Shown: positions 6,001-8,122 of the stretch, piece after piece
Numbering within the stretch: position 1 is the first letter of the stretch
How the letters are laid out: each line of letters begins with the position of its first letter
Virus record (IMG/VR): IMGVR_UViG_2531839446_000025
Location: 1-9,804 of that record
Origin: a virus
Taxonomy: Duplodnaviria > Heunggongvirae > Uroviricota > Caudoviricetes
Direction: 5' to 3' (one strand)
DNA: 9,804 bases
Program-made: the position numbers

Positions 6001-8122
6001 TGGGATGGTTGCGCAGCGTCAGGCATGAAATTATCCAGCGTGGCAATTATGGCCCGCCTGGCTGATTTCAGTAATGACGAAGGTGTGTGCTGGCCATCAA
6101 TTGAAACCATTGCCCGTCAGATTGGCGCGGGGATGAGTACCGTCAGAACGGCTATCGCACGGCTGGAAGCAGAAGGCTGGTTAACGCGTAAGGCGCGTCG
6201 CCAGGGTAACCGCAATGCGTCGAATGTTTATCAGCTTAACGTTGCGAAGCTTCAGGCTGCGGCATTTTCTCAACTGTCAGATTCTGACCCGTCAAAATCT
6301 GACGCATCAAAATCTGACCCGTCAAAATTTGATGCGTCGAAATCTGGCAAAAAAGCGGGTTTTCACCCGTCAGAATCTGGCGGGGATCCGTCAGTAAAAT
6401 CAAAACATGATCCGTCAGATAAAAAACCTTCTCGTCCGGACGCTTCGCAACCGGACACGCAGAAGGCTGAACAGGAGTTTTTAAATCACCATCCTGATGC
6501 GGTTGTATTCAGCCCTAAAAAGCGCCAGTGGGGAACGCAGGATGATTTGACCTGCGCACAGTGGCTCTGGAAAAAAATCATCGCCCTGTACGAGCAGGCC
6601 GCCGAATGTGACGGCGAGGTGGTTCGTCCCAAAGAACCTAACTGGACAGCCTGGGCAAACGAAATTCGCCTGATGTGTGTGCAGGATGGTCGTACTCACA
6701 AACAAATCTGCGAGATGTACAGCCGCGTCAGCCGCGATCCGTTCTGGTGCCGTAACGTGCTCAGCCCGTCGAAGTTGCGGGAAAAATGGGATGAGCTTTC
6801 CCTGCGCTTATCGCCGTCCGTCAGCACGCACACAGAAAAACGTGAAGACCCGTACTTCAAAGCCAGTTACGACAACGTGGACTACAGCCAGATCCCGGCA
6901 GGATTCAGGGGGTGATTATGAGTCTTTTGAATGAAGTTCAGAAATTCATTGAAGCCCATCCGGGGTGTACTTCCGGAGACATTGCGGATGCTTTTGCAGG
7001 TTACTCACGGCAGCGCGTTCTGCAGTCAGCAAGCAAGTTACGTCAGAGTGGGCGTGTGGCTCACCGTTGTGAAGGAGATACACGCAGACATTTCCCGCGC
7101 CTGACTGAGAGAGCGCAGGAGCCGGAACCACAACCAGTTCGTGAAACCAGACCTGTGCGCAATTTCTATGTCGGCACTAACGATCCCCGGGTGATTTTGT
7201 GCCTGACCCGCCAGGCTGAAGAACTGGAGTCAAGGGGCTTATACCGTCGTGCTGCAACGGTGTGGATGGCGGCATTCCGTGAAAGCCACTCCCAGCCAGA
7301 ACGAAACAATTTTCTGGCGCGTCGTGAGCAGTGTTTACGGAAAAGCAGCAAGCGCGCTGTATCGAGTGATGAGTGGTATCTGTCAGGGAATTACGTGGGG
7401 GCGTAATGACGACGTTAACTCAATGCCAGCAGCAGGTGCTGGATATGCTGATTTCTTATCAGAAAGAACGTGGCTTCCCGCCAACCAATCAGGAGGTGGC
7501 AACCATGCTGGGATACCGTTCGGTGAATGCAGCGGTGGAGCATCTTCGCGCACTGGAGAAAAAAGGCGTCATCACGATAAAGCGTGGTGTGGCCCGGGGG
7601 ATAACGCTTCATACCGCGGTCAAGGACGACGACAGCGAGGCGGTCGGGATTATCCGCGCACTGCTTGCCGGTGAGGAAAACGCCAGGCTGCGTGCAACCC
7701 ACTGGTTACATAAGAGGGGCATGAAAGTATGAAGCTGATTCTGCCTTTTCCGCCCAGCGTGAACACGTACTGGCGACACCCCAACAAAGGGGCGTTTGCA
7801 GGTAAGAGCCTGATAAGCGAGGCGGGGCGAAAATTCCAGAGCGCGGCGTGCGCAGCAATAGTTGAGCAGTTACGTCGTCTGCCGAAACCAACGTCGGCAC
7901 CTGCTTCAGTGGAGATCGTGTTGTTTCCTCCGGATAACCGGATCCGCGATCTGGACAACTATAACAAGGCGCTGTTTGACGCCATGACCCACGCGGGTGT
8001 GTGGGAAGACGACAGTCAGGTGAAAAGAATGCTAGTGGAGTGGGGACCGGTTATCCCGGAAGGGAAGGTCGAAATCACTATCAGTAAGTACGAGAAAACG
8101 GCGGGTGCAGCCGCCTGATTAA

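Follow-up and report, generated by a model that had tools for sequence, protein, structure and literature searches.

The stretch analyzed here (the window) comprises 9,804 nucleotides (nt) of the viral record IMGVR_UViG_2531839446_000025 (Caudoviricetes) and represents the early region of a lambdoid prophage of the mEp460/SfII/Stx2a type. Our subject is a small gene that starts at position 7406 of the window, between a PerC-like gene and the resolvase gene rusA, and whose product consists of the DNA-binding domain of the repressor LexA followed by a short tail (Table 1). Its open reading frame (ORF) encodes 108 amino acids (aa) plus a stop codon and is interlocked with both neighbors: the ATG shares bases with the TAA of the upstream PerC-like ORF (164 aa) in the sequence TAATG, and the TGA overlaps the rusA ATG as ATGA at 7729-7732. 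A mechanical listing of ORFs also offers a GTG start at 7373, which would yield 119 aa; because the relatives and all of the profiles begin at MTTLT, we take 7406 to be the true start.

Profile searches define the domain content of the protein. Residues 1-65 match positions 1-65 of the 65 positions of Pfam LexA_DNA_bind (PF01726; E=2.9e-19; 69.1 bits, with a gathering cutoff of 23.7), so that the whole domain is present, and the Pfam scan of the 108-aa protein, which stops at residue 108, gave no match to Peptidase_S24 (PF00717). The protein is also a full-length member of PHROG 362 ('transcriptional repressor', 106 positions), aligning over residues 1-108 with positions 1-106 (E=1.8e-59). It is not a LexA repressor proper: the NCBIfam lexA equivalog TIGR00498 reaches only 70.5 bits, under its cutoff of 110.95, and covers only positions 1-91 of 203, and the S24 domain with its Ser/Lys dyad and the conserved Ala-Gly in a strand-loop-strand are missing. 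The original prediction had described a LexA DNA-binding domain without a peptidase, translationally coupled to a PerC-like gene and rusA; the searches bear this out, both neighbors being recognized by Pfam (E=7.8e-10 and E=3.5e-15, respectively) and the start/stop overlaps being present. The alignment of the recognition helix, SVNAAVEHLRAL here and SPNAAEEHLKAL in LexA, was likewise correct, and the expectation that the protein would be insensitive to RecA-stimulated self-cleavage is supported, at the level of sequence, since the Ser/Lys domain is absent.

The same prediction had stated that the protein contains no Ala-Gly cleavage site. Taken literally this is wrong: alignments with the NCBIfam lexA model and by phmmer reach residue ~90 and pair Ala88-Gly89 with Ala84-Gly85 of LexA, HMMER setting 'AVGIIRALLAGE' against 'LPLVGRVAAGE', the cleavage-site segment of LexA. 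Relatives carry AN, AK, VG, TR, SG, ER or DD at this position, however, the dipeptide is not kept even at 83-90% identity, and AlphaFold2 (AF2) places it at the end of an alpha-helix and not in a beta-strand loop. We therefore rejected it as a retained cleavage site, so that the functional part of the statement holds, and the dipeptide is probably a vestige of LexA ancestry. The alignment through residues 1-91 is also what could be adduced for a decoy or substrate mimic of the SOS machinery, in which the Ala-Gly tail would titrate away RecA* or serve as a substrate that LexA or CI cleaves in trans. This idea has to contend with the lack of conservation just described, with a modeled helix where LexA cleavage needs a beta-hairpin, and with the absence from this protein of the C-terminal domain that RecA* needs in order to recognize LexA; we consider it very improbable.

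In the AF2 model of the monomer (mean predicted local distance difference test score, pLDDT, 78), residues 6-22, 28-35 and 40-52 form the helices of a winged helix-turn-helix (HTH) and residues 56-68 its wing; residues 69-73 make up a hinge modeled at low confidence, and two tail helices follow at 74-88 and 93-103 (pLDDT ~87). Foldseek superposes the DNA-binding domain on DNA-bound E. coli LexA (PDB 3jso), to which it is 50% identical, with a root-mean-square deviation (rmsd) of 1.3 Å over 68 residues, and finds no structural match for the tail in the PDB. Relatives as distant as 38% identity keep the hydrophobic pattern of the tail, in which A97 and L101 do not vary, and from the model we infer that this two-helix hairpin may stand in for the C-terminal domain of LexA as a dimerization element.

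Near-identical genes are present in 51 deposited phages, including mEp460, SfV (orf42), SfII and Stx2 phages, and in 2233 of 5426 complete E. coli genomes (~40%); existing annotations read 'LexA family transcriptional regulator', which is also the PGAP name of the gene, or 'LexA DNA binding domain protein'. None of the 167 close database matches carries an S24 domain, intact members among them are 104-108 aa long, and the longer entries are fusions to the upstream ORF or reflect alternative start calls. A profile search over 1.84 billion representatives added distant relatives, and those at 38-50% identity keep both the size and the tail (P0122, P0124-P0126, P0130, P0133, P0137, P0143, P0152 and P0165). 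Across 53 distinct nucleotide alleles, the ratio of nonsynonymous to synonymous polymorphism (pN/pS) is 0.144 for the whole gene, 0.031 for the DNA-binding domain and 0.415 for the tail helices; purifying selection on the DNA-binding domain is thus very strong. The original prediction had itself allowed that the gene might be a 3'-truncated LexA-like repressor. A truncated remnant of a longer repressor is ruled out by the uniform length, the end-to-end PHROG match, pN/pS and the conservation of the tail, and with the gene in so many genomes as well, a decaying, functionless fragment of a full-length LexA- or CI-like repressor, for which nothing speaks beyond the missing C-terminal domain, is vanishingly unlikely. 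The profile search also returned proteins with a tandem pair of LexA DNA-binding domains and no peptidase (P0128, P0132, P0138 and P0139), single-chain pseudo-dimers that represent another route to dispensing with the dimerization domain of LexA.

The LexA-like gene is an optional cassette, beginning and ending with the gene itself. Four arrangements were seen in the interval between the replication gene and rusA: PerC-like and LexA-like genes (the window, Ayreon and 2H10), PerC-like, Dam and LexA-like genes (the majority), PerC-like and Dam genes, and Dam alone. The window is therefore without the Dam gene that most relatives carry between the PerC-like and LexA-like genes. Each of the three is present or absent independently of the others, with junctions exactly at the start/stop overlaps, and the PerC-like gene is likewise an optional cassette. 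Neither replication nor immunity requires the LexA-like gene, which functions next to immunity and replication modules of several kinds; no convincing local inverted repeat or conserved palindrome was found in or beside it. With cassette edges that coincide with gene edges and modules that vary, the gene appears to bring no cis site of its own, which favors a target shared by all hosts.

Among loci sampled by way of the LexA-like gene, all 82 intact ones have rusA directly downstream. The same is true, with at most one small gene intervening, of all six informative contexts of the relatives at 38-50% identity, which have differing replication proteins, a different RusA lineage in two cases and often the 4-nt ATGA overlap; directly upstream, four of them have a DNA methyltransferase, whose type varies. 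The LexA-like gene was never seen without rusA in the loci sampled, while rusA occurs without it in 10 of 85. Such an association might be expected if the protein bound DNA as an accessory factor in recombination or replication and acted together with RusA, not as a transcription factor, for example by targeting junction resolution or modulating it or by structural DNA binding, and lambda NinH, too, is encoded immediately beside a resolvase gene, rap/ninG (Chakraborti et al., 2020; PMC7166090). However, modular evolution keeps the gene order of the nin region, so that adjacency alone is a weak argument, and RusA functions without the LexA-like gene in those 10 loci. Moreover, NinH has no increased affinity for junction or fork DNA (PMC7166090), and the domain in question has the LexA fold, which reads sequence, and is very strongly constrained. 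A role as partner of RusA therefore seems to us improbable.

We favor, tentatively and at somewhat less than an even chance, the reading that the gene encodes a RecA-insensitive, tail-dimerized LexA mimic that is made early in the lytic program and occupies LexA-box-like operators. According to this proposal, a ~12-kDa accessory early protein of lambdoid prophages would have arisen by capture of LexA's DNA-binding domain from an enterobacterial host, with a short hinge and the two-helix tail where LexA has its S24 autopeptidase and dimerization domain. Its gene would be read from the early rightward promoter along with the replication and nin genes, translation being coupled to that of the neighbors, so that the protein would be made only after repressor loss or on infection. 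The tail would dimerize the protein, and the dimer would most likely bind a LexA-box-like (CTGT-type) palindrome. Because RecA* could not inactivate a protein without a Ser/Lys peptidase, it could, as host LexA is destroyed, maintain or re-impose repression, presumably in preference to activation, at certain LexA-type operators; these might belong to host SOS genes or to LexA-controlled genes of co-resident prophages. In favor of the proposal are the complete DNA-binding domain and its close match to LexA in sequence and fold, four shared contact residues (see below), the constraint on the domain, the conserved tail and, as a precedent by analogy, lambda NinH. More doubtful, and in our view rather unlikely to hold in full, is the wider suggestion that a RecA-proof LexA mimic in ~40% of E. 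coli genomes re-silences LexA-box promoters in prophage induction, muting the host SOS response, genes for defense or toxins that SOS triggers, or antirepressors that rival prophages keep under LexA control, with some relatives also autoregulating the promoter of their Q operon.

The original prediction had pointed to a strong SOS box inside cI, and the window does contain this near-consensus box, TACTGTTTTTACATACAGTA: a LexA position weight matrix (PWM) built from E. coli boxes (training boxes score 12.9-26.3) gives it 25.1 bits and the next best site in the window 8.5. It lies in the part of the CI-like gene that links the HTH and S24 domains. The connection drawn between it and the LexA-like gene found no support. 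The box travels with the cI allele: all 32 loci with this allele have it, with or without the LexA-like gene, and it is closer still to consensus in the 93%-identical SfII allele, while the majority of carriers of the LexA-like gene have other cI alleles. Four loci with the box have rusA but no LexA-like gene (L040, L049, L056 and L058), and this pattern of co-occurrence rules out the cI box as cognate target. It could act as a roadblock on cI transcription or belong to an internal SOS-controlled promoter. A general enrichment of LexA boxes could not be demonstrated in counts made on the carriers alone; boxes are common there and their positions differ.

The recognition helix bears on which operators could be read. 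LexA has been assigned base contacts by S39, N41, A42, E44 and E45 (Knegtel, 1995, as cited in PMC13416735), and the protein has S39, N41, A42, V44 and E45, thus keeping four of these five residues. Several observations weigh against binding to LexA-type operators. No member of the family has Glu at position 44 (V, A, T, F, L or Y stand there instead), Glu45 is also lost in the distant members P0133, P0137 and P0165, and P0137, the protein of locus L091, therefore has neither. The genuine gamma- and beta-proteobacterial LexAs returned by the same search retain NAAE[ED]H; LexAs of other clades vary at exactly these helix positions, whereas those that read CTGT keep this motif, and in a protein aimed at host SOS boxes one would expect a helix as constrained as that of LexA itself. 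In addition, a box scoring ≥14 is missing from the surrounding ±10 kb in ~30 of 75 carrier loci, and with the cI box occurring also where the gene does not, there is no obligatory co-occurrence with phage-borne LexA boxes. Finally, gp6 of the GIL01/Bam35 tectivirus, described as a 'truncated LexA homologue' and the only characterized phage protein that consists of a LexA DNA-binding domain alone, recognizes a palindrome of its own, GaCACAnnTGTGaC, through which it switches on the late promoter P3 (Fornelos et al., 2018; PMC6182141). With Glu44 replaced family-wide and Glu45 lost in some members, canonical CTGT reading by this copy is, judged from the helix, plausible but unproven.

These observations would fit a phage-specific transcription factor that, as gp6 does, activates or represses at an operator of its own distinct from the SOS box, the LexA scaffold having been re-targeted; the precedent of gp6, the family-wide loss of Glu44 together with the variability of positions 42-46 in distant members, and the lack of a fixed association with canonical LexA boxes all argue for it. 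On the other hand, the cassette moves among differing modules without any non-coding DNA, so that a phage-borne operator would often be missing, and the search for a conserved palindrome in or beside it was negative, as noted above. Lambdoid late genes use Q antitermination, which makes an activator unnecessary, and the close members keep four of the five LexA contact residues. We hold a private operator to be possible, if on the whole doubtful, and continue to prefer a mimic that occupies LexA-box-like sites.

A connection with LexA boxes comes from two loci of distant relatives, L091 and L092, which share a common layout: a terminator hairpin, a sigma-70-like promoter (TTGCAA, 17 nt and AATAAT in L092), a LexA box, a ~150-nt leader, an ORF and the LexA-like gene, followed by RusA, DUF968 and Q. 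The box is canonical, overlaps the promoter and lies at the transcription start (TACTGTTTATATATACAGTG, 25.8 bits, in L091 and ACCTGTACATTCATACAGTA, 20.1 bits, in L092). This promoter ties the family to LexA-box regulation. The operon with the LexA-like gene is probably SOS-controlled in these two loci, autoregulation by the LexA-like product is possible, with the reservation for L091 that P0137 has neither Glu44 nor Glu45, and the LexA-controlled promoter would drive an antiterminator operon. The ORF between leader and LexA-like gene (75-82 aa) is conserved and has no Pfam match; its product could be an antirepressor-like factor.

Strong boxes were also encountered elsewhere. One of them, TACTGTAAAAATAAACAGTG, recurs in 19 sampled loci at the start of an N6_N4 DNA methyltransferase gene, downstream of Q/tR' and ahead of the lysis genes, which suggests that this methylase of the late region is under SOS control. 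Phage 2H10 has tandem LexA boxes (PWM 19.2 and 22.2) upstream of a small minus-strand ORF between its invertase and integrase genes, and this ORF looks like a typical SOS-regulated moron. In the window, a perfect CTGT-N8-ACAG match, CTGTTCTCGGATACAG, lies in the insertion sequence described below; its spacer and flanks are poor (PWM 6.8), and it is probably a chance match.

To the left of the LexA-like block in the window are genes for an O-like replication protein, a CII-like protein, Cro and a CI-like repressor with HTH and S24 domains (Pfam). The O-like gene contains a repetitive stretch, SDSDPSKSDASKSDPSKFDASKS, encoded by DNA repeats, which by analogy with the lambda O gene may be the iterons of the origin. 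Just downstream of rusA, a KilA-N domain gene is disrupted by IS100 (IS21-family, istA), and homology to mEp460-like phages ends at 8770. IS100 has probably cut the early operon off from Q and the late genes, so that the prophage copy in the window may be defective.

Table 1. Positions of the LexA-like gene, its parts and the other features discussed. Coordinates are those of the window unless preceded by a locus.
Feature	Coordinates	Strand	Evidence
LexA DNA-binding-domain-only gene, PHROG 362 member	7406..7732	+	ORF, Pfam, PHROG, relatives
Residues 1-68, LexA-type winged HTH DNA-binding domain	7406..7609	+	PF01726, AF2 model, Foldseek, pN/pS
Residues 39-50, recognition helix SVNAAVEHLRAL	7520..7555	+	alignment with LexA, relatives
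Residues 69-73, flexible hinge	7610..7624	+	low pLDDT (<50) at residues 71-73
Residues 74-103, family-specific two-helix hairpin, candidate dimerization module	7625..7714	+	model, relatives, pN/pS
Ala88-Gly89 codons	7667..7672	+	HMMER pairing with LexA Ala84-Gly85
PerC-like gene: winged-helix N-terminus and PerC-like C-terminus (YfdN-like)	6912..7406	+	Pfam, PHROG
rusA, Holliday junction resolvase	7729..8118	+	Pfam, PHROG
CI-like gene	4029..4721	-	Pfam
SOS box in CI-like gene	4493..4512		PWM
O-like gene	5974..6915		
Repetitive stretch in O-like gene	~6270..6350		
IS100	~8759..9804		
CTGT-N8-ACAG match in IS100	9284..9299		PWM
Promoter and LexA box region of distant relatives	L091:4476-5000; L092:4507-5000		
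Examples of the TACTGTAAAAATAAACAGTG box	L002:25063-25082 (SfV orf48 start); L001:11103-11122; L091:7739-7758		
Tandem LexA boxes of 2H10	L003:9817-9864		PWM
Small ORF of 2H10	L003:9555-9803	-	
Loci showing independent presence or absence of the PerC-like, Dam and LexA-like genes	L010, L012, L024, L028, L040, L049, L056, L058, L064, L080		

If LexA operators are indeed occupied by the protein, a very common prophage gene would modulate the SOS response inside the induced cell, which would bear on mutagenesis, on prophage competition, on responses to DNA-damaging antibiotics and, as the gene is found in several Stx2 phages, on the induction of Shiga-toxin phages. The gene would then be a second independent phage capture of the LexA DNA-binding head alone, beside tectivirus gp6, and a second nin-region mimic of a global host regulator, beside lambda NinH. 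If it serves a private operator or RusA instead, it is an ordinary accessory regulator.

Compared with the DNA-binding domain of E. coli LexA (PDB 1lea and 3jso), the protein has the same winged-HTH fold, the same residues S39, N41, A42 and E45 and a similarly short flexible linker after residue ~69. It differs in having Val for Glu44, in lacking the S24/dimerization domain and with it Ser119 and Lys156, in the two-helix tail that takes the place of the C-terminal domain, and in being encoded by a phage in an early lytic operon. Non-cleavable alleles of the lexA3(Ind-) type are full-length chromosomal point mutants that dimerize through the native C-terminal domain. If our preferred reading of a RecA-insensitive mimic is right, the outcome would be alike, namely occupancy of LexA-type operators that persists under active RecA*; the agent here would be a naturally occurring phage protein in which one domain has been swapped and a contact residue changed.

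The resemblance to gp6 of GIL01 is one of kind. Both are early products of temperate phages that comprise a LexA DNA-binding domain with no cleavage domain, both lie beyond RecA-mediated inactivation, and both derive from the LexA of the host. The gp6 sequence is a bare domain of 66 aa in which the tail is absent, and BLASTP of gp6 against our protein gave no alignment at E≤100; in view of this lack of pairwise similarity and of a tail, sequence comparison indicates that gp6 is an independent capture from Bacillus LexA, an analogue and not a relative. The two also differ in setting, gp6 activating the late promoter P3 whereas lambdoid phages express their late genes through Q.

NinH of lambda copies the HTH of host Fis, has a different C-terminal region by which it homodimerizes, and binds a motif like that of Fis (Chakraborti et al., 2020; PMC7166090). 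In position and domain content our protein is a nin-region mimic of the same type, as a functional analogy and not by sequence homology: each is the product of a small resolvase-adjacent gene between the replication genes and Q, and each copies only the DNA-binding domain of a global host regulator. The fold is different, the host protein is LexA and not Fis, and the LexA-like gene lies upstream of rusA while NinH is downstream of rap/ninG; dimerization and motif binding were demonstrated experimentally for NinH, and their LexA-like counterparts are predictions.

The statement in the original prediction that no role had been characterized stands for this family, for which the literature yielded annotation-level mentions and no functional study (a pangenome paper on Stx phages, for example, has an uncommented entry, 'pham 237, LexA family transcriptional regulator, pfam01726', for 15 phages), but proteins of the same kind have been characterized, namely gp6 and NinH. 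The LexA-like family is real, conserved and already annotated, and it is one more instance of a known strategy.

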